Shown here: piece after piece, positions 40,849 through 61,872 of the stretch
Numbering within the stretch: the stretch's first letter is position 1
Layout: every line of letters begins with the position of its first letter
Assembly (NCBI GenBank): GCA_937863995.1
Contig: CALMIK010000009.1
Span: 31,577-95,576 of the forward strand
DNA: 64,000 nucleotides
Reading direction: 5' to 3'
Source of the DNA: an uncultured Chelatococcus sp.
GTDB lineage: Bacteria; Pseudomonadota; Alphaproteobacteria; Rhizobiales; Beijerinckiaceae
Made by a program: the position numbers and the translations under genes
Notes under the pieces: generated by a model
What the model was told of the DNA's origin: nothing
Seen by the model: the letters and a program-made list of their open reading frames with translations, nothing else
The model's database searches: none

Positions 40849-40863
40849 GCGACCTTGGTCGTA
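40849..40863. promoter_or_regulatory. PQQ-island operator motif, copy 1
   Basis: GCGACCTTGGTCGTA in the divergent intergenic region. Confidence 0.75.
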
Positions 40864-43064: not shown

Positions 43065-43933
43065 ACCGCCGCCGTTTCATGACCATCTGCGCCGCCGTCG
43101 CGGCCTCGCCGGCGCTGGCGCAGACCCACAGCTGGCAGGCGCAGGCACTCGGCGGCACCGTCAGCATAGACCTGCGCGGCCCCCGCCCCCTCGCAGCAGA
43201 AACCGGGCGGGCGATCGCCGACGCCATCGAGGCGGTGGAGGCGGCTGCAAGCCTCTTCCGGTCGGATTCCGCCCTGTCGCGGCTCAACCGCGCCGGCCGC
43301 CTCGACCACCCGCCGCCCATGCTGCGCGATCTGCTGGCGCTGGCAAGCCGGATGCACGCGGCAACGGGCGGCGTGTTCGATGCCAGCGTCCAGCCGCTGT
43401 GGCAGGCGCTGGCGGAAGGAGCGGACCCCGCCGCGGCCCGCGCCCGCATCGGCTGGGAGCATGTCCGCGTCGGGACATCCGTCGTTCTGGGCAACGGACA
43501 GGCGCTGACGCTGAACGGCATCGCGCAGGGCTATGCCGCCGACAAGATCCGCGCGATGCTGCAAGGGGCGGGATACGAACAGGTGCTCGTGGACATGGGC
43601 GAGTACGCGGCGCTCTCCGGCCCGTTCCGCATCGGCGTCGAGGACCCTGAGCTTGGCCTGATCGCTATCCATGCGTTGCGCGGCGACGCCATAGCCACCT
43701 CCAGCCCCGGCGCGATGCGGCTTGGCGCGGGCGGCCACATTCTGGGCCCGGCAGGTCAGCAGCCTGTGTGGTCCACGGTGTCGGTGCAAGCCGCCAGCGC
43801 CGGCGTGGCCGATGGCCTCTCCACCGCGTTTTGCCTGATGGGCACAGCGGCGATCCGCACGGCGATGCGTATGCTGCCGGAAGTGTCGGCCGTCACGGCG
43901 GTGGATCTGAAAGGAGACGTGACGACGTTTTGA
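43061..43933 (+). CDS. apbE: FAD:protein FMN transferase with Tat signal
   Basis: Tat signal MNRRRFM; SLFRSDSALSRLN, LNGIAQGYAAD, DMGE, ATSS and ADGLSTA. Confidence 0.88.
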   Translation: MNRRRFMTICAAVAASPALAQTHSWQAQALGGTVSIDLRGPRPLAAETGRAIADAIEAVEAAASLFRSDSALSRLNRAGRLDHPPPMLRDLLALASRMHAATGGVFDASVQPLWQALAEGADPAAARARIGWEHVRVGTSVVLGNGQALTLNGIAQGYAADKIRAMLQGAGYEQVLVDMGEYAALSGPFRIGVEDPELGLIAIHALRGDAIATSSPGAMRLGAGGHILGPAGQQPVWSTVSVQAASAGVADGLSTAFCLMGTAAIRTAMRMLPEVSAVTAVDLKGDVTTF

Positions 43934-43965: not shown

Positions 43966-44880
43966 TCAGCGGCTGGGCGCCTCGAAATCCAGCCCGTGTT
44001 CCTTGAATATCGCGGCGATGCGCCCGTCCGCCAGCGCAGCTTCGATCGCCGCATCGACGGCATACGCGAGGTCGCGGTGCTGGAAGTTGACGCCGACGCC
44101 GATCGTCCACCGCCCCCGGGCAAAGCCCGTGAACGGCGGCTCGTGCACCTTGATACCGGCTTCCGGGTGCAGGGCGGCGCCCGCCTGCAACTCGCCGCGC
44201 GGTCCCATCGCGGCTTTCGTCTCGCCTCCGGCCAGTGCGCCCACGGCGAGCAGCGTGCTGCGAAAGCGATGAATGTTGTCCACCGGGCCGATGAGCGATG
44301 TCAGGTAGAAATCCGAGATGGAATCGTTCTCCACCGCCACCGTGTCGAACCGGAAATAAGGCGCGGTCGGCCCCTTCTCGGGAAAATCCTTGGCCTTGTA
44401 GGCAATCGCGATGGCCTCGGTGGCGTACTGGCCGGTGAACACCACCTGCTCTATGCGGCAGGTCAGCAGGCTGTCGTAGGGCACGTGCAGCATCACGTCG
44501 CTGACGCGCCCGCCGATCACCGCGCCTTTCCAGACGTAATTGAACAGGTCGGCGTCGAGGTTGTCGCCCGCCTGCACCAGACGGAAGCGCGGCTCCACGC
44601 CGAGCTCGGCCGCGATGAGACGGCCGATGTCGATGTCGATCCCGCGCGCCTTGCCGCGCTCTTCCCACGACCACGGACGGAAATCCGCGTAGACGGCGAA
44701 TTCGATCCATCCGTCCTGCACGATACGGTCGAACGTGCGTCCCACATCCTGCGCGAACGTGTTCTGGGGTTTGGGCTGCGGCGGGAAATCCTCGCAGCGC
44801 GCCAGCGCGCCGTGAGGAAAGACAGCGCCGAGCCCCAGCGCCAGAACGGCGGCCGTGAGTGCGCGGGTGAGCCGAGACAT
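43966..44880 (-). CDS. Periplasmic binding protein of PQQ-ADH systems (MxaJ/XoxJ-like role)
   Basis: Family-3 SBP features (FAVYADFRPWS, GIDIDIGR); directly follows the cytochrome c550 gene. Confidence 0.75.
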   Translation of the reverse strand: MSRLTRALTAAVLALGLGAVFPHGALARCEDFPPQPKPQNTFAQDVGRTFDRIVQDGWIEFAVYADFRPWSWEERGKARGIDIDIGRLIAAELGVEPRFRLVQAGDNLDADLFNYVWKGAVIGGRVSDVMLHVPYDSLLTCRIEQVVFTGQYATEAIAIAYKAKDFPEKGPTAPYFRFDTVAVENDSISDFYLTSLIGPVDNIHRFRSTLLAVGALAGGETKAAMGPRGELQAGAALHPEAGIKVHEPPFTGFARGRWTIGVGVNFQHRDLAYAVDAAIEAALADGRIAAIFKEHGLDFEAPSR

Positions 44881-44883
44881 GCC

Positions 44884-45570
44884 TTACTCCGTTGCCGAAA
44901 GGCCGACCGTCAGGATTTCGCCCGCCCTCTTCCAGCTTTCAGGGGCGTCGCCCAGCGTGCGTGCGGCCTCGTAGGCCACGCTGTCCGCCACCGGCGCGCC
45001 GGAAGCCGTCTTCACCTGGCTTGCAATGCCCTCGAGCTCCTTCTTCAGCGCCGCCGGGTCCGCCACCTTGCCGGAAGCCAGCTCGTTGCGGATCGCATGC
45101 AGGCGGGCGGCGTGGTCGTCGAGAGCGCCGTCCTCGGGGCGGCTTTCGATGTAGGTTCGGATGGCCCATGCCGCCTTCTGGCCGAGAATGTCGCCGAAGG
45201 CCGGCATCTTCGTCACTCCGTCCTGCGTATAGCCGTGGCGGAAGCGGTCCACGTACCATTCGTCGCCATGCTCCTCCGCCTCGACGAAGCGCAGGTCGGG
45301 AGCGAGGCCGCCGGAGACAACGCCCAGTCCGTGGCAGCGGGCGCAGTTCTGGGTGTAGCCCGACGCGCCGATCTCGACCGCCTTGAGCCAGACATCGTGC
45401 CCGGCCTTGGCCTCGCGGTACGGGTTCTCGGTCAGCCATTCCTCGCCCACTTCGGGCAGGCCGTCTGTGTTCATCGGCTGCGGGGCCACGTCACCGTGAG
45501 CAACGGCCAGACTGACCGTCGCCACGAGCGCCAGCGCGGCAAGGCCGCCGCGAATGCGGGTCCTGGACAT
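44884..45570 (-). CDS. pedF: Cytochrome c550 (PedF/ExaB-type electron acceptor)
   Basis: Contains HGDVAPQPMNT, the heme motif CARCH, APDLR and the axial KMPAF. Confidence 0.85.
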   Translation of the reverse strand: MSRTRIRGGLAALALVATVSLAVAHGDVAPQPMNTDGLPEVGEEWLTENPYREAKAGHDVWLKAVEIGASGYTQNCARCHGLGVVSGGLAPDLRFVEAEEHGDEWYVDRFRHGYTQDGVTKMPAFGDILGQKAAWAIRTYIESRPEDGALDDHAARLHAIRNELASGKVADPAALKKELEGIASQVKTASGAPVADSVAYEAARTLGDAPESWKRAGEILTVGLSATE

Positions 45571-45745: not shown

Positions 45746-46969
45746 ATGCGTAAAGCGTGTGCGCGGCAGGGGGCGAGAGCTTCCCTGCTCATGATGGCGC
45801 GGGCCATGGCGATCGCCACGGCGACTGTCGGGCCGGGAGCCGCCACACTGGCGACCGCTGCCGAAATCGCCGTTCCCCTGACGTATCTCAGGCAGGAAGT
45901 CGAGGCGCCCCCCGTCCTCTCCAACCTCGACCCCATCCCGGAAGACCTGGGCGTCGCCGGCGCGGAGGTCGCGCTCGCGGACACGAAGACCACCGGCCGC
46001 TTCCTCGGCCATGCCTACAGCCTGGAGGTGGTTTCGGTGGAACCGGGCGGCGACCTCGCCGGCGCGGCGAAAGCGGCGCTCGCGGCCTCGCCCGCGTTGT
46101 TCGTCGATGCGCCGGCCGACGACATCCTCGCCATCGCCGACCTGCCCGAGGCCGCAGGCAAGCTCATCTTCAACGTGGCGTCGGGCGACCGCAAGCTGCG
46201 CGACGGCGACTGCCGCGCGAACGTGCTGCACACAATCCCCGAGGACGCCATGCGCGCCGACGCGTTGATGCAGGTGCTGAAAGCCCGCCGCTGGACACGC
46301 ACCGCGCTCATCGTGGGGCCGAAGCCGCAGGACGCGGCTTTCGCGGCGACATTGCGCGCCTCGGCGGCGAAGTTCGGCGTCACGATCGCGGCCGAGAAGG
46401 CGTGGACGTTCGACACCGACCTGCGCCGGGCGGCCGGTCAGGAAATTCCGCTGTTCACACAAGGTTTTCCGGATCACGACATCCTGCTCGTGGCGGACGA
46501 GGCCGACGATTTCGCCCGCTACGTGGAGCACAACACCTGGCTTCCCCGCCCGGTCGCGGGCTCGGACGGGTTGCGCGGCGAGGGCTGGGCGCCGGTGCTG
46601 GAACAATGGGCCGCCGTGCAGCTCCAGAACCGTTTCGAGAAAGCGGCGAAGCGCGAGATGCGCAGCCGCGACTACGCCGCCTGGACCGCGCTGCGCACCG
46701 TCGGCGAAGCGGTGACGCGCACGAACTCCGCCGATCCCGCGACATTGCGCGGCTTCATCCTGTCGGATGCCTTCGCGCTCGACGGCTTCAAGGGCCGCAC
46801 GCTGACCTACCGCCGGTGGAACGGGCAGTTACGCCAGCCGATGGCGGTGGTGAATGCCCGGGCGCTGGTCGAGCTCGCGCCGCTCGAGGGCTACCTGCAC
46901 CAGATCAACGAGATGGACACGCTCGGCCTCGACAAGCCGGAAAGTGCCTGCAAAGCCTTTGGAGGATGA
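45746..46969 (+). CDS. ABC substrate-binding protein of the PQQ-ADH system (LutA-like)
   Basis: GGAGG RBS; LR..DCRANVLHTIP, MRADALMQ, LQNRFEK and FKGRTLTYRRWNGQLRQP. Confidence 0.8.
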   Translation: MRKACARQGARASLLMMARAMAIATATVGPGAATLATAAEIAVPLTYLRQEVEAPPVLSNLDPIPEDLGVAGAEVALADTKTTGRFLGHAYSLEVVSVEPGGDLAGAAKAALAASPALFVDAPADDILAIADLPEAAGKLIFNVASGDRKLRDGDCRANVLHTIPEDAMRADALMQVLKARRWTRTALIVGPKPQDAAFAATLRASAAKFGVTIAAEKAWTFDTDLRRAAGQEIPLFTQGFPDHDILLVADEADDFARYVEHNTWLPRPVAGSDGLRGEGWAPVLEQWAAVQLQNRFEKAAKREMRSRDYAAWTALRTVGEAVTRTNSADPATLRGFILSDAFALDGFKGRTLTYRRWNGQLRQPMAVVNARALVELAPLEGYLHQINEMDTLGLDKPESACKAFGG

Positions 46970-46970
46970 G

Positions 46971-47939
46971 ATGAAAACCCGCACCGGCCTCGCCGCGTTC
47001 CTCATGATGACCGCATTGCCGCTGGCGGCTGGCGCGGGCGAAATCTGGGTCACCAACGAAAAAGACGACACGATATCGGTCATCGATATCGACAAGCTGG
47101 AAGTCGTGCGCACGATCAAGACGGGCGAGCGCCCGCGCGGCATCACCTTCAGCTCGGACCACAGCCGCGTATACATCTGCGCCTCCGATAGCGACACCGT
47201 GCAGGTGATGGATCCCGCCACCGGCCAGGTTCTCCACGACCTCCCCTCGGGCGAGGACCCGGAGCAGTTCGTGCTCTCGCCCGACGACCGGCACCTGTGG
47301 ATCGCCAACGAGGACAACGCCGTGACCACGGTCGTCGATGTCGAAACCCGGCAGGTGGTGGCGCAGATCGATGTCGGCATCGAGCCGGAGGGCATGGCGA
47401 TCTCGCCCGATGGCAAGATCGCGATCACCACCTCCGAAACCACGAACATGGCCCACTGGATCGACACCGCCACCCACAAGGTTTTCGCCAACACCCTCGT
47501 CGACAGCCGCCCCCGCCACGCGGAATTCACCAAGGGAGGCAGCGAACTCTGGGTGTCGTCGGAAATCGGCGGCACGGTGACCGTGTTCAACACGGCGGAC
47601 CAAAGCGAAAAGGGCAAAATCCGCTTTGCGATCAAGGGCGTTAACCCGGACCTCATCCAGCCGGTGGGTTTCGAGTTCACCCCCGACGAAAAAACCGCCT
47701 TCGTGGCGCTCGGCCCGTCCAACCACGTCGCCGTGGTCAACGCCGAGACGCTGGAGGTCGAGAGCTACATCCTCGTCGGCCGCCGGGTGTGGCACCTCGC
47801 CTTTTCGCCCGACCACAGCAAGCTGTTCACGACGAACGGCGTTTCCGGCGATGTCACGGTAATCGACGTCGCGACGCGCGAACCCGTGAAATCGATCAAG
47901 GTCGGCCGCTTCCCGTGGGGCGCGGCGACACGGCCCTGA
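46971..47939 (+). CDS. YVTN beta-propeller protein (PedA1/LutB-like)
   Basis: Signal peptide, WVTNEKDDTISVID and repeated GxxPxG blades. Confidence 0.85.
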   Translation: MKTRTGLAAFLMMTALPLAAGAGEIWVTNEKDDTISVIDIDKLEVVRTIKTGERPRGITFSSDHSRVYICASDSDTVQVMDPATGQVLHDLPSGEDPEQFVLSPDDRHLWIANEDNAVTTVVDVETRQVVAQIDVGIEPEGMAISPDGKIAITTSETTNMAHWIDTATHKVFANTLVDSRPRHAEFTKGGSELWVSSEIGGTVTVFNTADQSEKGKIRFAIKGVNPDLIQPVGFEFTPDEKTAFVALGPSNHVAVVNAETLEVESYILVGRRVWHLAFSPDHSKLFTTNGVSGDVTVIDVATREPVKSIKVGRFPWGAATRP

Positions 47940-48001: not shown

Positions 48002-48454
48002 ATGAAGCGCATGACCGTGATCGCGGCCCTGATGGCAGCAACCCTGCCTTTCGGCGCATCGGCGAACGACGACGACGACAAGGGCAAGCTGGGCCTCGCG
48101 GGCCTCTTGTCGTCGCAGAACCGCGAGGTGCTGCCGAAGCTCACGCTTTCCGCCGGAGCGCCTCTGGCCGCGGCCCCGCTGAAGCTGAAATCCGGCAAGT
48201 ACTACAAGCTGCAGATCCAGGCCGACGGCAGCCAGGAACTCGCGCTGGAAGGGCCGGGCTTCTTCCGCTCCATCTGGGTCAACGAAGTTGTCATCGAGGG
48301 CATCGAGATCCGGCCGCTGGGCATCGATTCGCTGGAGTTCGACGAGGCGGGTGAGGCCGAGATCAGCTTCATCGCCATCAAGCCCGGCAGCTACCACCTG
48401 AAGGTACCCGGCACGACGGGCGATTTGCAGACCGTCGCCATCACCATCGAGTAA
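48002..48454 (+). CDS. Small exported acidic protein of unknown function (possibly cupredoxin-like fold)
   Basis: Signal peptide ending ASA, mature N-terminus NDDDD, FIAIKPGSY, and no Cys. GGAGG RBS. Confidence 0.75.
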   Translation: MKRMTVIAALMAATLPFGASANDDDDKGKLGLAGLLSSQNREVLPKLTLSAGAPLAAAPLKLKSGKYYKLQIQADGSQELALEGPGFFRSIWVNEVVIEGIEIRPLGIDSLEFDEAGEAEISFIAIKPGSYHLKVPGTTGDLQTVAITIE

Positions 48455-48462
48455 GCGGCCGT

Positions 48463-49200
48463 ATGCGGACGGACAGCAGAGCAGAAGGCCTCGTCGCCGA
48501 AGGGCTGACGCACGACTGGGGCGGAAAGCGCGCCCTGGACGATGTTGGTTTTTCGATTGCGGCAGGCCGGTTTTGCGCTCTGCTCGGGCCGAACGGCGCG
48601 GGGAAATCCACGCTGTTCGGCCTGCTGACGCGTCTCTTTGTGCCACGCACCGGCCGCATCGCCATCGCCGGACACGACCTTGCCCGCGAGCCGCTCGCCG
48701 CGTTGTCGCGCATCGGCGTCGTGTTCCAGCAATCGACGCTCGATCTCGACCTGACGGTGCGGCGCAACCTGTTTTACTTCGCCGCACTGCACGGCCTTTC
48801 CGGGCGCGAGGCGGAGGCGCGCGTCATGGCGGCGCTGGAGCGGCTCGGCATGGCGGAAAGAGCGCACGAGCGCGCCGGCGCGCTCAACGGCGGCCATCGC
48901 CGGCGCATGGAAATCGCGCGCGCATTGATCCACCGCCCGTCCGTGCTGCTGCTCGACGAGCCGACGGTCGGCCTCGACGCCGCCTCGCGCCGCGCGATTA
49001 CCGACCACGTCCATGCCCTCGCCCGCGACGAAGGCCTCACCGTGCTGTGGGCCACGCATCTCGTGGACGAGATCGCTTCGGACGACCGGCTGGTGATCCT
49101 GCACCGGGGCCGCGTGCTTGCCGATGGCGAGGCGGGAGACATCGGCGGCGCGGACCTGACCACCCGCTTCATCGCCCTCACCGATGGAGCGCCGGCATGA
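48463..49200 (+). CDS. ABC ATP-binding protein of the PQQ-ADH system (PedB/LutE-like)
   Basis: Contains GPNGAGKST, LNGGHRRR, LLDEPTVGLD and WATH. Confidence 0.88.
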   Translation: MRTDSRAEGLVAEGLTHDWGGKRALDDVGFSIAAGRFCALLGPNGAGKSTLFGLLTRLFVPRTGRIAIAGHDLAREPLAALSRIGVVFQQSTLDLDLTVRRNLFYFAALHGLSGREAEARVMAALERLGMAERAHERAGALNGGHRRRMEIARALIHRPSVLLLDEPTVGLDAASRRAITDHVHALARDEGLTVLWATHLVDEIASDDRLVILHRGRVLADGEAGDIGGADLTTRFIALTDGAPA

Positions 49201-50027
49201 CGGCTCCGCCGCGCGGCAACGCCGTTCGCGCAACCGCGCGTCACGCGCTGGTGGCGCTGGCCGCCATACTCCACCGCGAGGCGCTGCGCTTTCTGGGCCA
49301 ACGGGGCAGGCTCGTCGCGGCGCTGGTGCGGCCGCTGGTCTGGCTCATCGTGTTCGCTTCCGGCTTCCGCGCGGCGTTGGGGCTGTCGATCACGCCGCCC
49401 TACCAGACCTACATCACCTACGAAATCTACATCGTGCCCGGCCTCGCCGGCATGATCCTGCTGTTCAACGGCATGCAGTCTTCGCTGAGCCTCGTCTACG
49501 ACCGCGAGATGGGCTCCATGCGCCTGCTGCTGACCGCGCCGCTGCCGCGCTGGTGGCTGCTGCTGTGCAAGCTCATCGCGGGCGCGCTCATCTCCACGCT
49601 GCAAGCCTATGCCTTTCTCGCCATCGCCGCGGCCTGGGGAGTGCGCTTTCCGTGGTGGGGCTATCTCAATGCCCTGCCGGCGATCTTCCTGGCGGCACTC
49701 ATGCTGGGATCGCTCGGCATGCTGCTGTCCTCCCTGATCCGGCAGCTGGAAAACTTCGCCGGGGTGATGAACTTCGTCATCTTCCCGATGTTCTTCATGT
49801 CCTCGGCGCTTTATCCGCTGTGGAAGATGGCGGAAGCGTCGGCGCTCCTGCACGACATATGCGCCGCCAATCCCTTCACGCACGCCGTGGAGCTGATCCG
49901 CTTCGCGCTCTACGGACAGGCGAACTGGCTGGCGGCGGCGGTCACGCTCGGGGCGCTCATCGTGTTCGGAGCGGGTGCGATATGGGGCTACGACCCCGCA
50001 CGCGGCCTCGCGGCCCGCAAGGCGTGA
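49197..50027 (+). CDS. ABC-2 type permease of the PQQ-ADH system (PedC/LutF-like)
   Basis: Contains ALVRPLVWL, YIVPGL, LFNGMQSSLSLVYDREMG and NFVIFP. Confidence 0.88.
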   Translation: MTAPPRGNAVRATARHALVALAAILHREALRFLGQRGRLVAALVRPLVWLIVFASGFRAALGLSITPPYQTYITYEIYIVPGLAGMILLFNGMQSSLSLVYDREMGSMRLLLTAPLPRWWLLLCKLIAGALISTLQAYAFLAIAAAWGVRFPWWGYLNALPAIFLAALMLGSLGMLLSSLIRQLENFAGVMNFVIFPMFFMSSALYPLWKMAEASALLHDICAANPFTHAVELIRFALYGQANWLAAAVTLGALIVFGAGAIWGYDPARGLAARKA

Positions 50028-50054
50028 GGCTGACATCGGAACAAGGCACGGCGG

Positions 50055-50678
50055 CTACTCGGCGTCCTCAAGTCGCGCCGGACGGCCGGCGAGCCGCAGT
50101 TGCCGGGATGCCAGCCGCCGCGCCTCGGCGGCGACATGGGTGACGAGGATCGTGGCCACCGGCGTCGTCTGCCGCAGCCGCTCGAACAGCGCCATCATGG
50201 CTTCCGCCAGCTCCGGGTCGAGACTGACGAACGGTTCGTCCATCAACAGCAACTCCGGGCGCGACGCGAAGGCACGGGCCAGCGCCAGCCGGCGCTGCTG
50301 GCCGAGCGATAGCTGGGCGGGAAAACGCGCTTCGCAGCCCGCAAGCCCCACGTCGCCCAGCCAACGCCGCGCCTCGGGCGCGGATATGCCAGCGATGATC
50401 GACAGATTCTGCGCCGCGTCGCGCCAAGGCAGCAGCGCCGGTTCCTGAAACACCATGGCGATGCGCGCCGGGGCTTGGAGACGCCCGTGAAAGCGCCGTT
50501 CCAGCCCGGCGATAATCCGCAGCAGTGTGGTCTTGCCGACGCCCGATGGGCCCGTCAGCGCCAAGGTCTCGCCGGGCGCAAGCGTCAGGGAGAGAGGGCC
50601 GAGCACATCACCCGGCCCGCCGCGCTCCAGGTCGAGGCGCAGGCAGGGCTCAGATGCCGGAATCGACGAAAACGCCAT
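50055..50678 (-). CDS. NitT/TauT-family ABC ATP-binding protein
   Basis: Contains GPSGVGKTT, VFQEPALLPW, LSLGQQRR and LMDEPF. The start is uncertain. Confidence 0.85.
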   Translation of the reverse strand: MAFSSIPASEPCLRLDLERGGPGDVLGPLSLTLAPGETLALTGPSGVGKTTLLRIIAGLERRFHGRLQAPARIAMVFQEPALLPWRDAAQNLSIIAGISAPEARRWLGDVGLAGCEARFPAQLSLGQQRRLALARAFASRPELLLMDEPFVSLDPELAEAMMALFERLRQTTPVATILVTHVAAEARRLASRQLRLAGRPARLEDAE

Positions 50679-51621
50679 CGGGCAGTTCCTTGAGGTCACC
50701 TGCGAGATCCGCGCCGCCGAGTTCGACCATCAGCCCCAGCAGCCGCTGCGCCGCCGCCCTGTCGACGGGCCCGGGCTTGGGTATCCCGTCCAGAAAGCCC
50801 GCCTTCAGGGCCGCGAACTCCGCGTCGGACGCCGCGTTCATCAGCGGCCGGATGCGGTCCCACGCCGCCGGATCGGAGGCGAGCTTGTCCTTGGCGGCGC
50901 GAGAGGCCGCAGCAAGCCCGGCGGCGAGGCCGGGATGCGCGCGCAATACCTCGCCGCGCACCACGTAGCCGAGAAGCGGCGTGTCGGGATCGAGGCCAAG
51001 CGCCGTCGCCGCCGCGGAAACGGTGATGAGCGGGCGCATGCCCGCCGCCTGCATCCTGGCGCCGAAATGCCAAAAATTGACGGCGGCGGCGAATTCGCCG
51101 CCGAGCGCCGCCTTGAAGATGAGCGGCGGCGCGCCGAAGACCTGCTCCGTCTGGCCGGCCAGATCGAAGCCCTCTGCCTGCCTGGCGTAGGCGCGCAGGA
51201 TCAGCCAGCTCTTGTCCACCGGGCCGCCGGCGACCCCGATCCGTTGTCCGCGCAGATCGGCAAGCGCTTTCGCGCCGCTCCCGCCCGGCACCAACAGCGC
51301 GCCGACGGCGCGGGAATATGGGATGAACACGACATCGCGGCCGGCGGCGCGCTCACGCGCGACCCAGAGCCAGTCGGAGACGATCACGTCCACCTCCCCG
51401 GCCATCAGCGCGATCTGCGCGGCCGGCGTTCCCGCCATGTCCGTGACGGCGAGCGAAAAGCCGTTGGCCTTGTCGAAGCCGTTGTGGCGGATGGTGTCGA
51501 CTTCCCAGTTGACGGTGCCCGTAAGCTGAAGCGCCGCCCGCAGGCGCGGATGCTCCGCCAGCGCCGCCGAACAGGATAACGCGACCGCGACCGCCGCCCC
51601 GACAAGCGCCCGGATGTTCAT
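50650..51621 (-). CDS. NMT1/TauA-like substrate-binding protein, PqqT-like (candidate PQQ binder)
   Basis: Signal peptide; [22 protein letters not shown] and PYSRAVG; divergent from the PQQ-ADH gene. Confidence 0.75.
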
Positions 51622-51672
51622 GCCAATTCCTCCTTTTTTCCTGTATCCTATTGGCAATACGGCAGCGGGATA

Positions 51673-51728
51673 TACGACCAAGGTCCCGTATCGGATGCCG
51701 GCCCGCGGGCAATGTTACGACCAAGGTG
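51673..51728. promoter_or_regulatory. PQQ-island operator motif, copies 4 and 5
   Basis: TACGACCAAGGTC (51673-51685) and TACGACCAAGGTG (51716-51728), 43 bp apart. Confidence 0.78.
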
Positions 51729-51827
51729 CAATATACCGCCCCGTTGCACGCACCAATAATGACGGAAATGGCTGGACGACCTGCGGCAAAGCTCCGTGAT
51801 CCGCGCCATGATCCGAGGGAGGATATA

Positions 51828-53594
51828 ATGAAACGGTTCTTGCTGGCCGCTGTCACGGCCATGGCCTGCGTCGGAATGGCCCAGGCACAGGTGACTGAAG
51901 AAGATCTGGCGAACGACGCCGAAACCGTCAACAACGTGCTCACGAACGGCCTCGGCCGGGGGTTGCAGCGCTACTCGCCCCTGCAGACGCTCAACAAGGC
52001 CAACGTGAAGGGCCTCGTCCCGGCATGGGCCTTCAGCCTCGGCGGCGAAAAGCAGCGCGGGCAGGAAAGCCAGGCGATCGTCTACGACGGCGTGATGTAT
52101 ATCACCGGTTCCTACAGCCGCATCTTCGCCATCGACGTCGCCACCGGGCGCAAGCTGTGGCAGTACGACGCTCGCCTGCCCGAGGGCATCCTGCCCTGCT
52201 GCGACGTCGTCAACCGCGGCGCGGCGATCTTCGGCGACAACGTCTATTTCGGCACGCTCGACGCGCGTCTCATCGCGCTCAACCGCAAGACCGGCCGCGT
52301 GGTCTGGAACAAGAAGCTCGCCGAGTACAAGGAAGGCTATTCGTACACCGCCGCGCCGCTCATCGTGAAGGGCCTCGTCATCACCGGCAATTCCGGCGGC
52401 GAGTTCGGCGTGGTCGGCGAGGTGCAGGCTCGCGATGCGGCCACGGGCGAGCTGGTGTGGTCGCGCCCCACCATCGAAGGCCACAAGGGCACCTTCAAGG
52501 GTAAGGAATCGAGCACCACCGGAACCCTCAACGCCACCTGGCCGGGCGATGCGTGGAAGACCGGCGGCGGCGCGACGTGGCTCGGCGGCTCCTATGACGC
52601 CGACACCGACACGCTCGTCTTCGGCGCCGGCAACCCCTCGCCGTGGAACAGCCATCTGCGCGGCGCCGGCAAGCCCATGGAAGGCAACAAGGGCGACAAC
52701 CTCTACGCCGCCAGCCGTCTCGGCATCGACCCCGCGACCGGCGAGATCAAGTGGCACTTCCAGACCACCCCGCGCGAGGGCTGGGATTTCGACGGCGTGA
52801 ACGAGGTCGTGCCCTTCGTCGCGGCGGACGGGACGAAGCGCTACGCCACGGCCGACCGCAACGGCTTTTTCTACATCCTGAACCGCGAGGACGGAAAATA
52901 CGTCAATGCCTGGCCGTTCGTGAAGAACATCAACTGGGCCAAGGGCATCGACAAGGACGGCCGCCCGATCTTCAACGAAGAGAACCGCCCCGGCGATCCC
53001 GCCGCCGCGGCAGACGGCGCCAAGGGCCAGCAGATCTTCTCCGTGCCGTCCTTCCTCGGCGGCAAGAACTGGATGCCCATGGCCTATAGCCAGAAGACCG
53101 GGCTGTTCTACGTGCCTTCCAACGAATGGGGCATGGACATCTGGAACGAGCCGATCAACTTCAAGAAGGGCGCTGCCTTCCTCGGCGCGGGCTTCACCAT
53201 CAAGCCCCTGTTCGAGGACTACATCGGCAGCCTGAAGGCGATCGACCCGAACACCGGCGACATCAAGTGGGAATACAAGAACGGCGCGCCGCTGTGGGCG
53301 GGCGTGATGACCACCGCCGGCGGACTGGTCTTCACCGGCAATCCGGAAGGCGAGTTCCTCGCGCTCGATGACGAAACCGGCGAAGTGCTGTGGAAATTCC
53401 AGACCGGGTCGGGCATCGTGGGCCAGCCGGTGACGTGGGAACAGGACGGCGAGCAGTACGTCTCCGTCATCTCCGGCTGGGGCGGCGCGGTGCCGCTGTG
53501 GGGCGGCGAAGTGGCGAAGAAGGTCAACTACCTCAACCAGGGAGGCATGGTCTGGACCTTCCGCCTGCCGAAGGAACTGGCCAAGGCCAACTGA
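51828..53594 (+). CDS. pedH: PQQ-dependent alcohol dehydrogenase, lanthanide type (PedH/ExaF-like)
   Basis: Signal peptide ending AQA, vicinal [16 protein letters not shown], the active-site WDFDGVNE (D-x-D) motif, and GGKNW. Confidence 0.88.
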
Positions 53595-53672: not shown

Positions 53673-54395
53673 ATGTCCGGCTCTTTCGATTTCTTCCGGG
53701 ATTCCCGCATTCCCCTCGCGGCCGAGCCGGCGCCGGGCGCCGTCGACATGCGCTCGATGCTGATCGTCGACGATCACCCGCTGTTTTGCGACGCGCTCGC
53801 CATGACACTGACACGCCTCGTCGGCATCGAGACGGTGGAAGCCGTCGGCACGCTCGAGATGGCGCTCATGCGGCTTGAAGCCGGCCCGACGCCCGACGTC
53901 GTGGTGCTCGATCTCAACCTGCCCGACGTGAGCGGCCTCGACGGCGTGGTGCGCCTGCGCAAGGCGATCCCCTCGACGCCGATCGTCGTGGTGTCGTCGC
54001 TCGACGAACTGCGCGTGACGCGGGCGGCGCTGCGGGCGGGCGTCAACGCCTTCGTGCCCAAGCATGCCGAGCGCGAGGAATTCCGCGCCGCCTTCGCGGC
54101 CATCAGCCGGGGCGAGGTGTATGCCGGACGCATGGCGCTGGAGGTCACGGCGCCCTCCCCCTCCGAGCACGTCATCGCGCGGCTGGCGCTGCTCACGCGG
54201 CAGCAGGCCAAGATACTGGAGATGGTCTGCGAGGGACTGATGAACAAGCAGATCGCCTACGAGCTCTCCATCGCCGAAACCACGGTGAAAGCGCATCTGA
54301 CGGCAATCATGCGCAAGCTCGGCGTCCAGACGCGCATGCAGGCCGTGCTGTTCGTGAAAGAGGCCAGTTTTTCCGCCCTCACGCCGGAAGGCTAA
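53673..54395 (+). CDS. NarL/LuxR-family response regulator (ErbR/PedR1/FlhR-like)
   Basis: Contains IVDDHPL, VLDLNLPD and the HTH NKQIAYELSIAETTVKAH. Confidence 0.92.
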   Translation: MSGSFDFFRDSRIPLAAEPAPGAVDMRSMLIVDDHPLFCDALAMTLTRLVGIETVEAVGTLEMALMRLEAGPTPDVVVLDLNLPDVSGLDGVVRLRKAIPSTPIVVVSSLDELRVTRAALRAGVNAFVPKHAEREEFRAAFAAISRGEVYAGRMALEVTAPSPSEHVIARLALLTRQQAKILEMVCEGLMNKQIAYELSIAETTVKAHLTAIMRKLGVQTRMQAVLFVKEASFSALTPEG

Positions 54396-54558: not shown

Positions 54559-55734
54559 ATGAAACAGGCCGGACGGCCTACGGATGCTCACGCATCGATT
54601 ATCCGCAGGGCCTGCGTGCCGGCGGCAAACCTGCGCGCCGCCGAGGACCTTGCCGGGATGCTCGGGCCGGGGCCTTTCGCGCTCGTCATCGTGTTCACCT
54701 CTCCCGACGCCGATCTGGCGCGGCTGTCGGCGCAGGCGGCGCAAGTCTTCGCCGGGGCGAGGCTCATCGGCTGCACCACGGCGGGAGAGATTTCCGACGC
54801 CGGCTACGACGACAACACGATCGTCGCGGTGGCGCTGCCCGCATCGCATTTCGGCGCGGAAACCCTCACCATTCCCGACCTGTCGCGGCTTGAGCCGCGC
54901 GACCTCACGACGGCCGTGGCGCGGGCGCGCGAGGCGCTGGCACGCGATTATCCCACTCTCCCGCACGCGTTCGCCATGCTGCTCGTCGATGGGCTTTCGG
55001 TGAAGGAGGACGAGCTCGCATCGGCGCTCTCGGCAGGCCTCGGGTCAATGCCGCTGCTGGGCGGCTCCGCCGGCGACGGCACACGCTTCCAGCAGACGTT
55101 CGTCATCGACGGCGACCGGCTGCTGCGGAACGCGGCGGTGCTGGCTTTCGTGCGCAGCGCGTGCCCGATGCGGATATTCAACCTCGACCACCTGATACCG
55201 ACCAAGAAGCGCATGGTGGTGACGCTGGCGGAGCCGCGCCGGCGCATCGTGCGCCGGATCAACGACGAACCGGCGGCGCAGGAATATGCGCGCCTGCTGG
55301 GCAAGGACCCGCTACAACTCACGCCCTTCAACTTCGCCGCGCATCCGCTGGCCGTGCGCATGGGCGAGCGCCACCACGTGCGCGCGGTGCAGCAGGTGAC
55401 GCCGGATGGCGATCTGGTGTTCTTCTCCGCCATCGACGAGGGCGTCGTGCTGACGCTCGCCGAGCCGCAAGACATCGCCCAGCATCTCGAACACGAGCTC
55501 GACCGGCTGAGTGAACCGGCGCAACCCGTTGCGGTCGTCGCCTTCGATTGCATCCTGCGCCGGCTCGAGGCGCAGGAAAGGCAGGTCACGGGCCGCGTGT
55601 CGGACATCCTGCGCAGGCATGGCGTGACGGGTTTCTCGACCTACGGCGAGCAGTTCGGCGCGCTGCACGTCAACCACACGATGACCGGGATCGCGTTCTA
55701 CGCACCCGGCACCGCGCTGCCCGAGGACGGCTGA
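54559..55734 (+). CDS. FIST N/C-domain sensory protein
   Basis: Contains GCTTAGEI, LVDGLS, GGSAGD, AFDCILR and GFSTYGEQ. Confidence 0.9.
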   Translation: MKQAGRPTDAHASIIRRACVPAANLRAAEDLAGMLGPGPFALVIVFTSPDADLARLSAQAAQVFAGARLIGCTTAGEISDAGYDDNTIVAVALPASHFGAETLTIPDLSRLEPRDLTTAVARAREALARDYPTLPHAFAMLLVDGLSVKEDELASALSAGLGSMPLLGGSAGDGTRFQQTFVIDGDRLLRNAAVLAFVRSACPMRIFNLDHLIPTKKRMVVTLAEPRRRIVRRINDEPAAQEYARLLGKDPLQLTPFNFAAHPLAVRMGERHHVRAVQQVTPDGDLVFFSAIDEGVVLTLAEPQDIAQHLEHELDRLSEPAQPVAVVAFDCILRRLEAQERQVTGRVSDILRRHGVTGFSTYGEQFGALHVNHTMTGIAFYAPGTALPEDG

Positions 55735-57965
55735 TGGCGCGCATTTCCGAATGGCTGATCGACCCCGACGACACGCCCGAGCGCACGATCGAAAAGCTCC
55801 TGACCATCACCGAGGTGCTGATGCGCCAGGTCGAGCAGGCTTCGGGCGAGCGCGGCGCGGCCTATGAACAGTTTCGCCGCGCGGCGTTGCTGGAAGACCG
55901 CGTGCGCCAGCGAACGCTCGACCTGGAATACGCCCTGCGCCTGCTGGGCGAGACCAATTCCCGCCTCACCACCGCGAAGCGCACGGCGGAACGGGCGCAG
56001 CGCGATCTCGCCAACGCCATCGAGGCCGTGCAGGAAGGCTTCGCGCTGTTCGACGAGACGGACACGCTGGTGCTGCACAACTCCCGCTTCTGCCGTGACT
56101 TGCCGGATGTCCGCCGTGGCCTGCGCGCGGGCATGGCGCTGTCCGAATACGTGGATCTCGTCGGCTATTCCGCCTCGCTCTCCCTGCCCGCCGACCAGAC
56201 ACGCGAGGAGTGGGTGAAGGAGCGGATGCAGCGCCACCACGACCGGCAGGTGTTCAACGTGGCCCTCACCGGCGACCGCTGGCTGCAGGTCAGCTCCCAG
56301 CGCATCAACGGCGGCGGCACGGTGATGCTCCAGACCGACGTCACGGACATCATCCGGCTGGAACGGATCGAACGCGGCAAGATGCTCGACAATCAGGCGC
56401 GGATCATCCGCGCCACGCTCGAACACATCAGCCAGGGCGTCTGCATCGTCGATGTCAACCTGCGTCTCGTGGGCTGGAACAAGCGGCTCGCCCAGCTTCT
56501 GGACATGCCCCCCGCCTCGCTGCGCCAGGGCGCGGGGTTCGACAGCCTTCTGCGCCACTTCGGCAACGACAGCATCTACCAGGAACATGTGTCGTTCGAG
56601 GCGCTCGCCATCTGGGCGCGTCAGGCAAGGCCGCGTCCGCCGCAGTCGTTCGAGATACGCCGCGCGTCGGGCGTGATACTCGACGGATACGCGCGGGAAA
56701 CGCCCGAGGGCGGATTCGTGATTTCCTTCAGCGACGTCACGCGCGAGCGGCTGGCGGTGCAGGCCATGCTGCGCGCCAACGCCTCGCTGGAGGCGCGGGT
56801 GGCCGCGCGGACGCTCGACCTGGAGGCGGCGCTGGAAGACGCTGAACGGGCCAATGCCTCGCGCGTGCGCTTCGTGGCGGCGGCGAGCCACGATCTGCTG
56901 CAGCCGCTCTCGGCAGCCAAGCTTTTCATCGCCTCCGCTCGCGACGACGACCCCAGCCCGCTGGTGCGCTCGACGCTGGGAAAGGCGCTCAACGCGTTGG
57001 TCAGCGTGGAGGGAATCCTGCACGCGCTGCTCGACATCTCCCGGCTGGAGGTAGGCGAATCCGCCGTCGAGATCGTGCCGGTGCGGCTCGTGCCCCTGCT
57101 CGCCCAGCTCACGGACGAGTTCGCGCCTGTCGCCGCCGGAAAGGGACTGCGGCTGACGATCGTGCCAAGCCGGCTCACCGTGGCGAGCGACCCGGCCTAC
57201 CTGCGGCGCATCCTGCAAAACCTGATCGGCAACGCCATCCGCTACACGCGCACGGGGCGGGTGCTGGTCGGCGCGCGGCGCTCGGGCGGGAAAATCCGCA
57301 TCGAAGTGCATGACACCGGCCCCGGCATCGCCCCCGAGGACCAGCAGCTCATCTTCCGCGAGTTCCACCGGCTCAACGGCTCGGCGTCCGCGTCGGAGGG
57401 CATGGGCCTCGGCCTCGCCATCGTGCAGCGGGCGTGCGCGCTGCTCAACCACAGGCTGTCGCTAACGTCGGAACCGGGGCGCGGCACGTCGTTCTCGGTC
57501 GAGATGGCGTTGTCGGCGCCCGATTCCATGCTGTCGTGCCCGGGCCTGATCGTCACCGGCGCCGATGAACCGCGCGACGGCAGCAACCGGATCGCGCTGC
57601 TTGTCGGCAGCGCTCCCGACCTGCGGCGGGAGCTGGGCATGCAGCTTGAGCGGCGCAACATCACCGCGTGGGAGGTCGGCAACGGCGATGAGGCGCTGGC
57701 GCTGCTGGAGGAAATCGGCATCGTGCCCGACTTCTACCTCGTGGATCAAGACCTTGACGCAGGCGCGGGCTGCATCGAGACGGTGCGCGCGCTCCACGAA
57801 GGCTGGGGCGAGCGGCCGACACGCATCCTGACCGTGGAGCCGGCCTGCGGATCGTTGGCGGAGAGCGGAATCGAGTGCCTGCGCAAGCCCGTGGAGGACG
57901 CGGCGCTGGATGCCTTCATCGCCGGCGCGGCCTCGTTCTCTCCACCGCTTTCCCCCGCGCGCTGA
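55734..57965 (+). CDS. PAS-fold hybrid sensor histidine kinase (FlhS/ErcS/PedS1-like)
   Basis: H-box [10 protein letters not shown]-box NLIGNA, DTGPGI, GMGLGL and a C-terminal receiver domain. Confidence 0.9.
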
Positions 57966-58051: not shown

Positions 58052-58498
58052 ATGCGCGCAAGTTTGGCAATCGCCATCAACGCCGGGCTCGTAACGGCAT
58101 GGCTGGCGACCGGAGCAGCGCTGGCGGCCGAGCACGAAGTCAAGATGCTCAACCAGGGCCCGAACGGGACCATGGAATTCCAGCCTGCCGCGATCAAGGC
58201 CGCACCGGGCGATACCGTCCGCTTCATTCCCACCGACAAGAGCCATAACGTCGAGGGAATCAAGGGGATGCTGCCGGAGGGCGTCGCGCCTTTCAAAAGC
58301 AAGATCAACGAGGAATTCGTGCTGACGCTGACCGAGCCCGGCATCTACGGTGTGAAATGCACGCCGCATTTCGCCATGGGAATGGTCGCGGTCATCCAGG
58401 CCGGAGACGCGCCGGCCAATCTCGAGGCGGCAAAGGCTGTGAAGCTGCCGAAAAAGGCCGCGGAACGGATAGAGGCGGCATTCGCGGAACTGCCGTGA
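58052..58498 (+). CDS. Pseudoazurin (type I copper protein)
   Basis: Contains VKMLN, the Cu ligands SHN and CTPH..M, and a GGAGG RBS. Start set at MRASL. Confidence 0.92.
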
Positions 58499-58659: not shown

Positions 58660-58743
58660 ATGGCCTGGAATACACCTTTTATTGTCGAAATCTGCGTCGG
58701 CCTTGAGGTCAACGCCTATTTTCCGGCTGACATCGAAAACTGA
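58660..58743 (+). CDS. pqqA: PQQ precursor peptide
   Basis: Translates MAWNTPFIVEICVGLEVNAYFPADIEN*, with the E-x3-Y motif and an AAGGAGG RBS; directly upstream of pqqB. Confidence 0.95.
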   Translation: MAWNTPFIVEICVGLEVNAYFPADIEN

Positions 58744-58767: not shown

Positions 58768-59694
58768 ATGACGATGTCTGACCCGTCCTCCCGCCTGCGG
58801 CTCGTGGTACTCGGCTCAGCGGCCGGCGGGGGTTTCCCCCAGTGGAATTGCCGCTGCCCCGTCTGCTCGCTGGCATGGAGCGGAGACCCACGTGTCCGCA
58901 GGCGGACCCAGACATCCATCGCGGTCAGCGTGGATGGCGAGCGGTGGGCGCTGGTGAACGCCGCACCGGAGATCCTGTCCCAGATTCAGGCTGTGCCCGT
59001 GCTGCATCCACGGGTGCCGGGCCGGTGCACGCCGGTGGTTTCCGTGCTGCTCACCAACGCCGACATCGATCACGTCGCGGGGCTGCTAAGCCTGAGGGAG
59101 GCGCAATCGTTTTCCCTATACGCGACGCATGCAGTCCATGACGTGATCGCCGCCAACAGCGTGTTCGACGTTCTCGCGGCCGGCGTGGTCGAAAGGCCAC
59201 GCGTGGCCCTGAACACGCCTTTTCCGCTGCTCGACGGTCTCACCGCCGAGATATTCCCGGTGCCAGGCAAGGTCGCGCTCTATCTGGAACGCGGCGAGGT
59301 CGACACCGCGGCGGAGGGCGAGCAGACCGTGGGGGTGGAGTTCAACCACGGCACGCGCCGCATCCTGTTCATTCCGGGCTGCGCCCTCATGACGGATGCC
59401 TTGCGCGCGCGCATCGACGGAGCGAACGTGGTGCTGTTCGACGGCACCGTATGGCGCGACGACGAGATGATCGTCGCCGGTGTCGGCAGCAAGACCGGCA
59501 AGCGCATGGGCCATATGGCGATATCGGGCGCGGACGGCTCCATGGCGGCCTTTGAGGGACTGCGCGTCAGCCGCAAGGTTTATGTGCATCTCAACAACAC
59601 CAACCCGGTGCTCGTCGAGGGATCGCCCGAACGGCGCGCGGTGGAACGCGCGGGCTGGGAAGTGGCGGAAGACGGAATGGAGCTTGCAGGATGA
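58768..59694 (+). CDS. pqqB: PQQ biosynthesis protein B
   Basis: Contains LGSAAGGGFPQWNC, RTQTSIA, DIDHVAGL, MGHM and HLNNTNP. Confidence 0.95.
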   Translation: MTMSDPSSRLRLVVLGSAAGGGFPQWNCRCPVCSLAWSGDPRVRRRTQTSIAVSVDGERWALVNAAPEILSQIQAVPVLHPRVPGRCTPVVSVLLTNADIDHVAGLLSLREAQSFSLYATHAVHDVIAANSVFDVLAAGVVERPRVALNTPFPLLDGLTAEIFPVPGKVALYLERGEVDTAAEGEQTVGVEFNHGTRRILFIPGCALMTDALRARIDGANVVLFDGTVWRDDEMIVAGVGSKTGKRMGHMAISGADGSMAAFEGLRVSRKVYVHLNNTNPVLVEGSPERRAVERAGWEVAEDGMELAG

Positions 59695-60446
59695 CAGGAT
59701 TGCTCTCCCCTCAGGAGCTGGAGGCGGCGCTGCGCGATGTCGGGACGCGGCGCTATCACAACCTGCATCCGTTCCACAGGCTGTTGCATGGCGGCCGGCT
59801 CGATGTCGGGCAGGTGCGGGCATGGGCGCTCAACCGCTATTATTATCAGGCGATGATTCCGGTGAAGGATTCCTCGATCCTCGCCCGCATGGAAGAGCCC
59901 GAGCTGCGGCGCAGCTGGCGCCAGCGCATCATCGATCACGACGGCGAACACGAAGGCGAAGGCGGCATCGCGCGCTGGCTCAGGCTCACCGACGGCCTCG
60001 GGCTCGACCGCGAATACGTCACGTCGCTGCGCGGCCTGCTGCCCGCCTCCCGCTTCGCGGTCGAGGCCTATGTGCATTTCGTGCGCGAAAAAACGCTTCT
60101 CGAAGCCATCGCCTCCTCTCTCACCGAGATGTTCTCGCCGAACATCATCGAGGAGCGCGTCGCCGGCATGCTGAAGAATTACGATTTCATCTCGCCGGAA
60201 ACGCTGGCCTACTTCAACAACCGCCTCACGCAGGCCCCGCGCGACGCCGATTTCGCGCTGGACTACGTCAAGAGCCACGCCCGCACGCCCGAGCAGCAAC
60301 AGGCGGCGATCCGCGCCCTCGAATTCAAGTGCGACGTGCTCTGGGTGCAGCTCGACGCCCTCTACTTCGCCTACGTGGACCCGAAGGCAGGTTATCCGGG
60401 CGCGTTCGTCCCCGCTGCCGGCGACAGCCCGGAGGAAAGGCCGTGA
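59691..60446 (+). CDS. pqqC: PQQ synthase
   Basis: Contains [25 protein letters not shown] and FKCDVLW. Confidence 0.95.
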
Positions 60447-60754
60447 GCGCCCCCCTGCCCGCCGACTGCGTGCCGAAGCTGGCGCGCGGCGTGCGCCTGC
60501 GCCGCGACGAGGCGCGCGAACAATGGGTGCTGCTCGCGCCCGAGCGTGTGCTGCAGCCCGATCCCGTCGGCGTCGAAATTCTCAGGAAGGTCGATGGCGT
60601 GCGCACGTTCACGGTCATCGTCGACGAGCTCGCGGCCGCCTTCACCGCCGACCGCACGCGCATCGCCACCGATGTCGGCGCCTTTCTCGCCGGTCTGGTG
60701 GAAAAGGGAATGGTCGAGATCGTCACGCCGTCATCGGAACAGGCAGCGCCATGA
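60443..60754 (+). CDS. pqqD: PqqA-binding chaperone
   Basis: GTG start overlapping the pqqC stop; PKLARGVRL...WVLLAPERV. Confidence 0.9.
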
Positions 60755-61872
60755 GCGCCGTCGCCGACAGCGGCGCGCCGGCAAAGGCGCCAGCCCCGCT
60801 GCCCGTGCCCTACGGCATGCTGGCGGAACTCACGCATCGCTGTCCGCTGCAATGCCCCTATTGCTCCAACCCGGTGGAGCTGGAACGCCGCACCGGCGAG
60901 CTCGACACCGAAACATGGCTGCGCGTGTTCACTGAGGCGGCGAAGCTCGGCGTGCTCCAGGTTCACCTGTCCGGCGGCGAGCCGACAGCGCGGCGCGATC
61001 TCGAGCAGATGATCGCGCATTGCGTCGAGGTGGGGCTTTACACCAACCTCATCACGGCCGGAGTGGGCGTCACGCCGGAACGCCTGCGGGCGATATCGGA
61101 CGCGGGCGTCGACCACGTCCAGCTCTCCTTCCAGGGAGCGGATGCGCCAACCACCGATCATGTGTCGAATTTCTCAGGCGCGCACGAACGCAAGCTCGCC
61201 GTCGCCCGTGAAGTACGCCGGCTCGGCTTGCCCCTCACCGTCAACGCGGTTGTGCACCGGGCGAACATCCACCAGATCCCGGCCTTCATCGACCTGGCGC
61301 TCGCGCTGGACGCGCGGCGCATCGAGATCGCCCACGCGCAGTATTACGGCTGGGCGCTGCGCAACCGCGGCGCGCTCATGCCGACGCGCGACCAGGTTTT
61401 CGAAGCTCTCGCCACGGTCGAGGAAGCGCGGGAGCGGCTGAAGGGCAGGCTCACCATCGATGCTGTGGTTCCGGACTATTACGCGAAATATCCAAAGCCG
61501 TGCATGAACGGCTGGGGCCGGCAGTCCCTCAACGTCACGCCTTCCGGCAAGGTGTTGCCGTGCCACGCGGCGGAAACCATCCCGAACCTCGACTTCTGGA
61601 ACGTGCGCGACCACGGCCTGGCGGAAATATGGACCGGCTCGCCGGCCTTCCACGCCTATCGCGGCACGCACTGGATGCCGCACCTGTGCCAGACCTGCGA
61701 GCGCCGCGAGATCGACTGGGGCGGCTGCCGCTGCCAGGCGATGGCCATCGCGGGCGATGCGGCGGCCACCGATCCGGCCTGCCATAAATCGCCGCTCCAC
61801 GCGCGCATGCTCGCTCTCGCCGAGACGGACGCCTCTACGGCAAGCGCCTACGACTACCGGCGCTATAGCTGA
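60751..61872 (+). CDS. pqqE: Radical SAM PqqA cyclase
   Basis: Contains [31 protein letters not shown] and GGCRCQA. Confidence 0.95.

Follow-up and report, generated by a model that had tools for sequence, protein, structure and literature searches.

An alcohol dehydrogenase of the PedH/ExaF kind, predicted to depend on lanthanides, in a ped-like gene island of an uncultured Chelatococcus

Introduction

Since 2014, textbooks have treated the second aspartate of a D-x-D motif as a marker of PQQ dehydrogenases that depend on lanthanides, and experiments published between 2017 and 2020 validated it. A gene for a PQQ-dependent alcohol dehydrogenase (ADH) with such a motif is present in a stretch of 64,000 nucleotides from an uncultured Chelatococcus sp. 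(contig CALMIK010000009.1), which we analysed as a whole and call the window. An earlier note on this DNA had recognised the motif and concluded that the enzyme uses lanthanides and that a default annotation as exaA would miss this. The question raised by the locus is therefore whether the ADH belongs with the lanthanide enzymes PedH and ExaF or with the calcium enzymes ExaA and PedE, and what its neighbourhood and the rest of the genome tell about the metal it uses. The aspartate is an established marker (Good et al. 2020), and it has been used in ocean-wide surveys (PMC11996626).

Results

The motif lies in an intact gene

Positions 52782 to 52805 of the plus strand read TGG GAT TTC GAC GGC GTG AAC GAG, which translates to W-D-F-D-G-V-N-E in frame with a long open reading frame (51651-53594); the motif with its aspartate codons at 52785 and 52791 is thus exactly as the earlier note had given it. 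The true start of the gene is the ATG at 51828 rather than the edge of the reading frame at 51651. This ATG is preceded by GGGAGG (51817-51822) and the five bases ATATA, and it is also the start in an identical public metagenome contig. By inspection, the N-terminus consists of MKR, a hydrophobic core and AQA/Q and can be aligned with the leader of PedH; this is typical of an export leader (residues 1-20), and the enzyme is predicted to be periplasmic. The features of the locus are collected in Table 1.

Table 1. Features of the ADH gene and its surroundings, with the PedE-type paralogues of two congeners. Fractions are loci of other species in which the gene is found near the ADH orthologue.
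Feature	Position	Strand	Remarks
PedG/XoxJ-like periplasmic binding protein	43966-44880	-	Pfam SBP_bac_3; 36/57
Cytochrome c550 PedF	44884-45570	-	TIGR04494, 188 bits (cut-off 122); 40/57
PedA1	45746-46969	+	TIGR03863, 469 bits, over cut-off; 46/57
PedA2, beta-propeller	46971-47939	+	TIGR03866, 518 bits, over cut-off; 49/57
150-aa exported protein	48002-48454	+	function unassigned by family; between PedA2 and PedB
PedB ATPase	48463-49200	+	TIGR03864, 344 bits, over cut-off; 42/57
PedC permease	49197-50027	+	TIGR03861, 426 bits, over cut-off; 39/57
ABC ATPase and NMT1/SsuA-like binding protein	50055-50678, 50650-51621	-	between pedC and the ADH gene
Palindrome GACCAAGGTC	51676-51685	.	upstream of the ADH gene
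Near-copy GACCAAGGTG	51719-51728	.	upstream of the ADH gene
PQQ alcohol dehydrogenase gene, very probably PedH/ExaF-type	51828-53594	+	intact; 588 aa including predicted signal peptide 1-20
Cys124-Cys125	52197-52202	+	vicinal pair, PQQ-ADH disulfide ring; kept with PedH and ExaA
Glu192	52401-52403	+	predicted metal ligand; equivalent to PedH E199
Asn269	52632-52634	+	predicted metal ligand; equivalent to PedH N281
Loop residues 279-288	52662-52691	+	10 residues, not in PedH; common to the alphaproteobacterial clade
D320	52785-52787	+	GAT; predicted catalytic/metal Asp, aligned with PedH D323
D322	52791-52793	+	GAC; predicted extra lanthanide-ligand Asp (D-x-D), aligned with PedH D325
LuxR-type response regulator (AgmR/ErbR/ErdR-like)	53673-54395	+	NF041830, 159 bits, below cut-off; P. 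putida gene table
NosP-like FIST protein	54658-55734	+	below equivalog cut-off; 37/57
NahK/ErcS'-like histidine kinase	55734-57965	+	below equivalog cut-off; 35/57
Pseudoazurin gene	58052-58498	+	TIGR02375, over cut-off; between kinase gene and pqqA
pqqA	58660-58743	+	found by translation
pqqB	58768-59694	+	part of pqqABCDE
pqqC	59691-60446	+	part of pqqABCDE
pqqD	60443-60754	+	part of pqqABCDE
pqqE	60751-61872	+	part of pqqABCDE
PedE-type paralogue L100	G001:C1:18474-20138		TWDFSGNNE
PedE-type paralogue L101/L114	G004:C7:213820-215484		TWDFSGNNE

The nearest characterised structure is PedH

By its profile match the protein is a member of the PQQ methanol/ethanol dehydrogenase family: TIGR03075 (PQQ-dependent dehydrogenase, methanol/ethanol family) was matched with 762 bits (cut-off 480) over positions 3-530 of 530, and the Pfam family PQQ was matched as well. 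Among all PDB sequences, the best matches were PedH of Pseudomonas putida KT2440 (6ZCV and 6ZCW, 832 and 827 bits), followed by ExaA (1FLG, 680 bits). Scores were lower for the quinohaemoprotein ADHs, at about 317-353 bits, for XoxF, at about 307-338 bits, and for MxaF, at about 236-278 bits. Sequence identity is 64% to PedH over the full length, 56% to ExaA and 30-34% to the XoxF and MxaF structures (33-34% for XoxF). An AlphaFold2 model, calculated from a 40-sequence alignment (pTM 0.85, mean pLDDT 78.5), predicts an eight-bladed beta-propeller with PedH, ExaA, XoxF and MxaF as best structural matches (TM 0.80-0.94). PedH 6ZCW was closest (TM 0.90/0.94, rmsd 2.2 Å), with ExaA at TM 0.89/0.90 and XoxF and MxaF at about 0.80-0.84. 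PedH is thus the top match in sequence as well as in fold.

The metal in the PedH structure 6ZCW, Pr3+, is bound by Glu199, Asn281, Asp323 and Asp325, the last of which binds bidentately (PMC11845868). Counted along the 6ZCV chain, all four ligands are kept in the ADH (E192, N269, D320 and D322), and the aligned stretch GWDFDGVNE is identical in the two proteins, whereas ExaA has AWDFSGNNE. The residues aligned with PedH Phe412 and Trp561, at which two deposited PedH sequences disagree, are likewise kept. The loop of residues 279-288 resembles a loop of ExaA; model confidence is low here and throughout residues 270-287, beside Asn269.

The diagnostic aspartate is invariant among close relatives

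The motif WD[FY]DGVNE was found in all of the 120 database clusters closest to the ADH (79-92% identity; Rhizobiales and Rhodobacterales), and D-x-D in 79/79 orthologue loci extracted from different species. Since it is invariant in both sets, D322 is not a chance feature. The search for these loci used a mixed PedH/ExaA/ADH alignment and yielded only PedH-type loci; the diversity of the ExaA type was therefore taken from a separate homologue search, in which 119 of the 120 clusters closest to ExaA had WDFSGNNE (D-x-S). In the wider family D-x-D was the commonest state (80/111), with D-x-T, which is quinohaemoprotein-like, in 20/111; this set, made up of 104 full-length representatives at 50% identity, the ADH, PedH, ExaA and four close homologues, cannot split type 2a from type 2b, as the two types share a cluster or lie close to it. 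The census agrees with the published view, in a discussion citing Keltjens 2014, that the lanthanide type of enzyme is more widespread than the other.

A quick maximum-likelihood tree was calculated from 59 sequences, with PedH and ExaA from the PDB as references and the ExaF, PedE, XoxF and MxaF references left out. The super-clade of ExaA and PedH (type 2) had an SH-aLRT support of 100. Within it, the ADH was placed in a clade of 20 rows (support 98), which is in turn part of the PedH-side clade (support 92). The sequence nearest to the ADH is a protein of Pseudochelatococcus lubricantis with 92% identity. The D-x-S sequences, which are ExaA-like, formed one separate clade (support 100) that does not include the ADH, and XoxF-like representatives were located in the outgroup. 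The phylogeny that had been suggested as a check of the lanthanide assignment thus places the enzyme on the PedH side, in a tree of 59 sequences without ExaF.

The three-way contrast on which that assignment had been based was also found in our data, with D-x-A in the MxaF-like paralogues of related genomes, W-D-F-S-G-N-N-E in ExaA (1FLG) and serine in all but one of its 120 neighbours, and W-D-F-D-G-V-N-E in PedH (6ZCV/6ZCW). Homologues with more than 79% identity are abundant in public databases and carry generic names, so that a default exaA-like annotation does miss the type.

Two long-branch relatives among the PedH-type sequences of the representative library have lost ligands: in P0123 the catalytic Asp is replaced by Gly and Glu/Asn by Thr/His, and in P0124 Asn is replaced by Ala. 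Degenerate or catalytically inactive paralogues are one possible explanation, errors in the gene models another.

The gene is part of a ped-like island

For comparison of the neighbourhood we used 57 loci of other species, each with a flank of 8 kb on either side, and a gene table of Pseudomonas (PMC12997753). By this comparison, the island is arranged like the ped/exa (ethanol) regulon of Pseudomonas. PedA1, PedA2, PedB and PedC are linked with the ADH orthologue in 39-49 of the 57 loci. In P. putida, PedA1A2BC is required for PedH-dependent growth, and P. aeruginosa has neither the lanthanide enzyme nor PedA1A2BC (PMC12997753); the tight linkage therefore fits the use of lanthanides. The response regulator is found near the orthologue in 38/57 loci, and the pairing of NosP and NahK occurs in the Pseudomonas clusters, too (PP_2663-PP_2665 and PA1975-PA1978; PMC12997753). 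Neither a PedS2/PedR2-type pair nor a PedE partner was found within the island, which has one LuxR-type regulator and the NosP/NahK-like pair instead.

Other parts of the island vary more between species. The 150-aa protein had no match in Pfam or NCBIfam; it is kept at the same position in 25/57 loci with a median identity of 67%. The segment with the ABC ATPase and the NMT1/SsuA-like protein (50030-51714) is near the ADH in 25-27/57 loci, and a congener (G004) has 118 bp in its place; the segment is an indel within the genus. A pseudoazurin gene is rare at this position (4/57 loci).

A NosR-like protein and ApbE are encoded beside the island (40959-43933, plus strand) and near the ADH orthologue in 12-14/57 loci. 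An assignment of these two to an N2O-reductase cluster was considered and rejected, as no nos genes are nearby and only ABC transporters are located upstream. At the other end (61995-64000, minus strand), a gene for a very large protein, 2183 aa long in the public contig, runs off the edge of the window; the C-terminal part encoded here has an autotransporter beta-domain.

The palindrome upstream of the ADH gene belongs to a motif, GACCWWGGTC, which has five exact matches in the window against 0.17 expected (at 40851, 45657, 45680, 51676 and 57981). All copies lie in intergenic regions of the island: 5' of the NosR-like gene, in the gap that separates pedF from pedA1, 5' of the ADH gene and 5' of the pseudoazurin gene. 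The motif is probably a shared operator of the island, and it is perhaps read by the adjacent LuxR-type regulator.

The rest of the genome and the congeners

The assembly comprises 3.53 Mb in 99 contigs and is 97% complete. It contains exactly one match to TIGR03075, the ADH itself. Eight diverse PQQ-ADHs, namely PedH, ExaA and sequences representing groups outside the ExaA/PedH clade of the tree, were used as tblastn queries against the assembly; they matched the ADH gene alone, showing no second PQQ-ADH and neither XoxF nor MxaF.

Two of four genomes of the same genus (G001 and G004) carry an orthologue of the ADH with 92% identity and WDFDG. Both also carry a PedE-type paralogue with 53% identity to the ADH, followed by a gene for a PedD-like pentapeptide-repeat protein and adjoined by CopCD-like and OmpR/histidine kinase genes. 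In G004, about 24 kb separate the PedH-type from the PedE-type gene. The synteny with G004 spans the whole island and ends directly after pqqE, at the gene for the large protein, and the PedE region of G004 has no counterpart anywhere in the 99 contigs. This comparison was made to see whether a PedE-type gene had been lost at a contig end; the gene is likely absent from the organism, which on present evidence would have the lanthanide-type enzyme only.

The TonB-dependent receptor family had seven matches in the genome, six of them over the cut-off and none near the island, and none of the seven was assignable as an outer-membrane lanthanide receptor. A crude regular expression for lanmodulin-like multi-EF-hand proteins had no match in any of the six reading frames of the genome.

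Discussion

A probable lanthanide enzyme of the PedH/ExaF kind

We regard it as very probable that the ADH is a periplasmic enzyme which depends on PQQ and a lanthanide and belongs with PedH and ExaF in Keltjens type 2b. Beyond the match to PedH, the four ligands, the position in the tree and the adjoining PedA1A2BC genes support what the earlier note had read from the motif. Its metal, its substrates and its electron path are proposed here by analogy with the biochemistry of PedH and ExaF, and its regulation is likewise a proposal; no biochemical data were found for the ADH or for any member of its group of 79-92% identity. On this analogy, a trivalent light lanthanide, and not Ca2+, would sit beside PQQ, held by Glu192, Asn269, Asp320 and the carboxylate of Asp322, with Asp322 completing the higher coordination number of Ln3+. 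Acting as a Lewis acid, the lanthanide would polarise the C5 carbonyl of PQQ, and Asp320 would be the base. The enzyme might oxidise ethanol as well as further short alcohols and aldehydes. Its electrons would pass to the adjoining cytochrome c550 PedF as the likely acceptor and from there to the respiratory chain, while PQQ would be supplied by the adjoining pqqABCDE genes. As in P. putida, PedA1A2BC might have a part in importing lanthanides or in signalling.

It is also conceivable, although in our view unlikely, that the ADH is promiscuous for its metal and has useful activity with Ca2+ as well as with lanthanides in spite of D-x-D. Such an enzyme would allow the genome to do without a PedE-type paralogue, and indeed the ADH is the sole PQQ-ADH of this nearly complete genome, while both congeners keep the D-x-S paralogue. 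In addition, D-x-D is not a perfect predictor, since it is also present in a membrane glucose dehydrogenase that uses Ca or Mg (PMC11996626), and PedH has been reported to coordinate Ca if grown without rare earths (PMC11845868). However, characterised enzymes of this type, such as XoxF1, have little or no activity when loaded with Ca, and the D319S exchange in ExaF lowers La-dependent function; the aspartate is described as essential for lanthanide function in both XoxF1 and ExaF (all according to Good et al. 2020). The active-site stretch of the ADH is identical to that of PedH, and the linkage with PedA1A2BC is conserved, which also speaks against useful activity with calcium. The missing calcium-type backup could thus reflect true reliance on lanthanides or an ADH that also works with Ca.

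That the enzyme is a calcium-dependent ethanol dehydrogenase of the ExaA/PedE type (type 2a), as a default annotation might imply, is very improbable. The identity to ExaA, the shared fold (TM 0.89) and the ExaA-like loop that PedH does not have would fit such an assignment, but both sequence and tree already contradict it: the position two residues after the catalytic aspartate is Asp and not Ser (or Thr), the ADH is not a member of the D-x-S clade, which has strong support, and the true PedE-type gene of the congeners is only 53% identical and located elsewhere, beside the PedD-like gene. A primary role as methanol dehydrogenase in methylotrophy, similar to XoxF, is just as improbable: ExaF supports growth of M. 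extorquens on methanol if other methanol dehydrogenases are missing (PMC11845868) and the adjoining PedG is XoxJ-like, but the XoxF and MxaF structures are only distantly related to the ADH (XoxF 310-338 bits against 832 for PedH), the genome has neither enzyme and the island is organised like an ethanol regulon.

Implications

The ADH is an ordinary representative of an enzyme group that is well known and very widespread, and the differences from the P. putida system leave the kind of system unchanged. Its clade has hundreds of near-identical members in Alphaproteobacteria from soil, freshwater and the sea, and the ADH adds little new basic knowledge. The label of the gene should be PedH/ExaF-type (lanthanide-dependent) and not exaA. 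Since no calcium-type backup was found, the organism is expected to need trace rare earths for the PQQ-dependent oxidation of ethanol and related alcohols, which bears on cultivation media and on the reading of rare-earth-linked metabolism in metagenomes.

As a tentative proposal, which we consider possible but rather doubtful, this bacterium might oxidise alcohols with PQQ on lanthanides only, having kept the PedH-type enzyme, PedA1A2BC and the pqq genes under one operator for the island and having lost, or never gained, the PedE-type and PedD-like genes. The presence of the candidate operator at NosR/ApbE and pseudoazurin as well hints at a regulon in which rare-earth alcohol oxidation is wired to electron carriers of the copper/denitrification type.

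Comparison with known systems

The closest characterised relative is PedH (PP_2679 of P. putida KT2440; 6ZCW/6ZCV), with which the ADH shares 64% identity, GWDFDGVNE, the E/N/D/D ligands, the Cys-Cys pair and the fold. As in P. putida's ped cluster, the enzyme is found together with PedF, PedG, PedA1A2BC, an AgmR-like regulator and a NosP/NahK pair. Unlike PedH, the ADH has the 10-residue surface loop (279-288), and unlike the situation in P. putida, the island has no PedE partner and no visible PedS2/PedR2-type pair, it includes pqqABCDE and a pseudoazurin gene, and its host is an alphaproteobacterium.

ExaA (PA1982; 1FLG) and PedE (PP_2674), the calcium enzymes of type 2a, belong to the same family and share the fold, the Glu/Asn/Asp ligands and the Cys-Cys pair with the ADH at 56% identity, but they have Ser where the ADH has Asp322 and form a separate, fully supported clade. 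In the congener, the PedE-type gene is a distinct paralogue at about 24 kb from the PedH-type gene.

Characterised alphaproteobacterial members of type 2b are ExaF of Methylorubrum extorquens AM1 and ExaF/PedH of Methylopila sp. M107 (PMC11845868), which we compared by their published descriptions. The ADH has in common with them the diagnostic aspartate (D319 in ExaF), the alphaproteobacterial host and the flanking PedF/PedG-like genes. Their hosts, however, are methylotrophs with XoxF/MxaF, whereas the genome that carries the ADH has neither.
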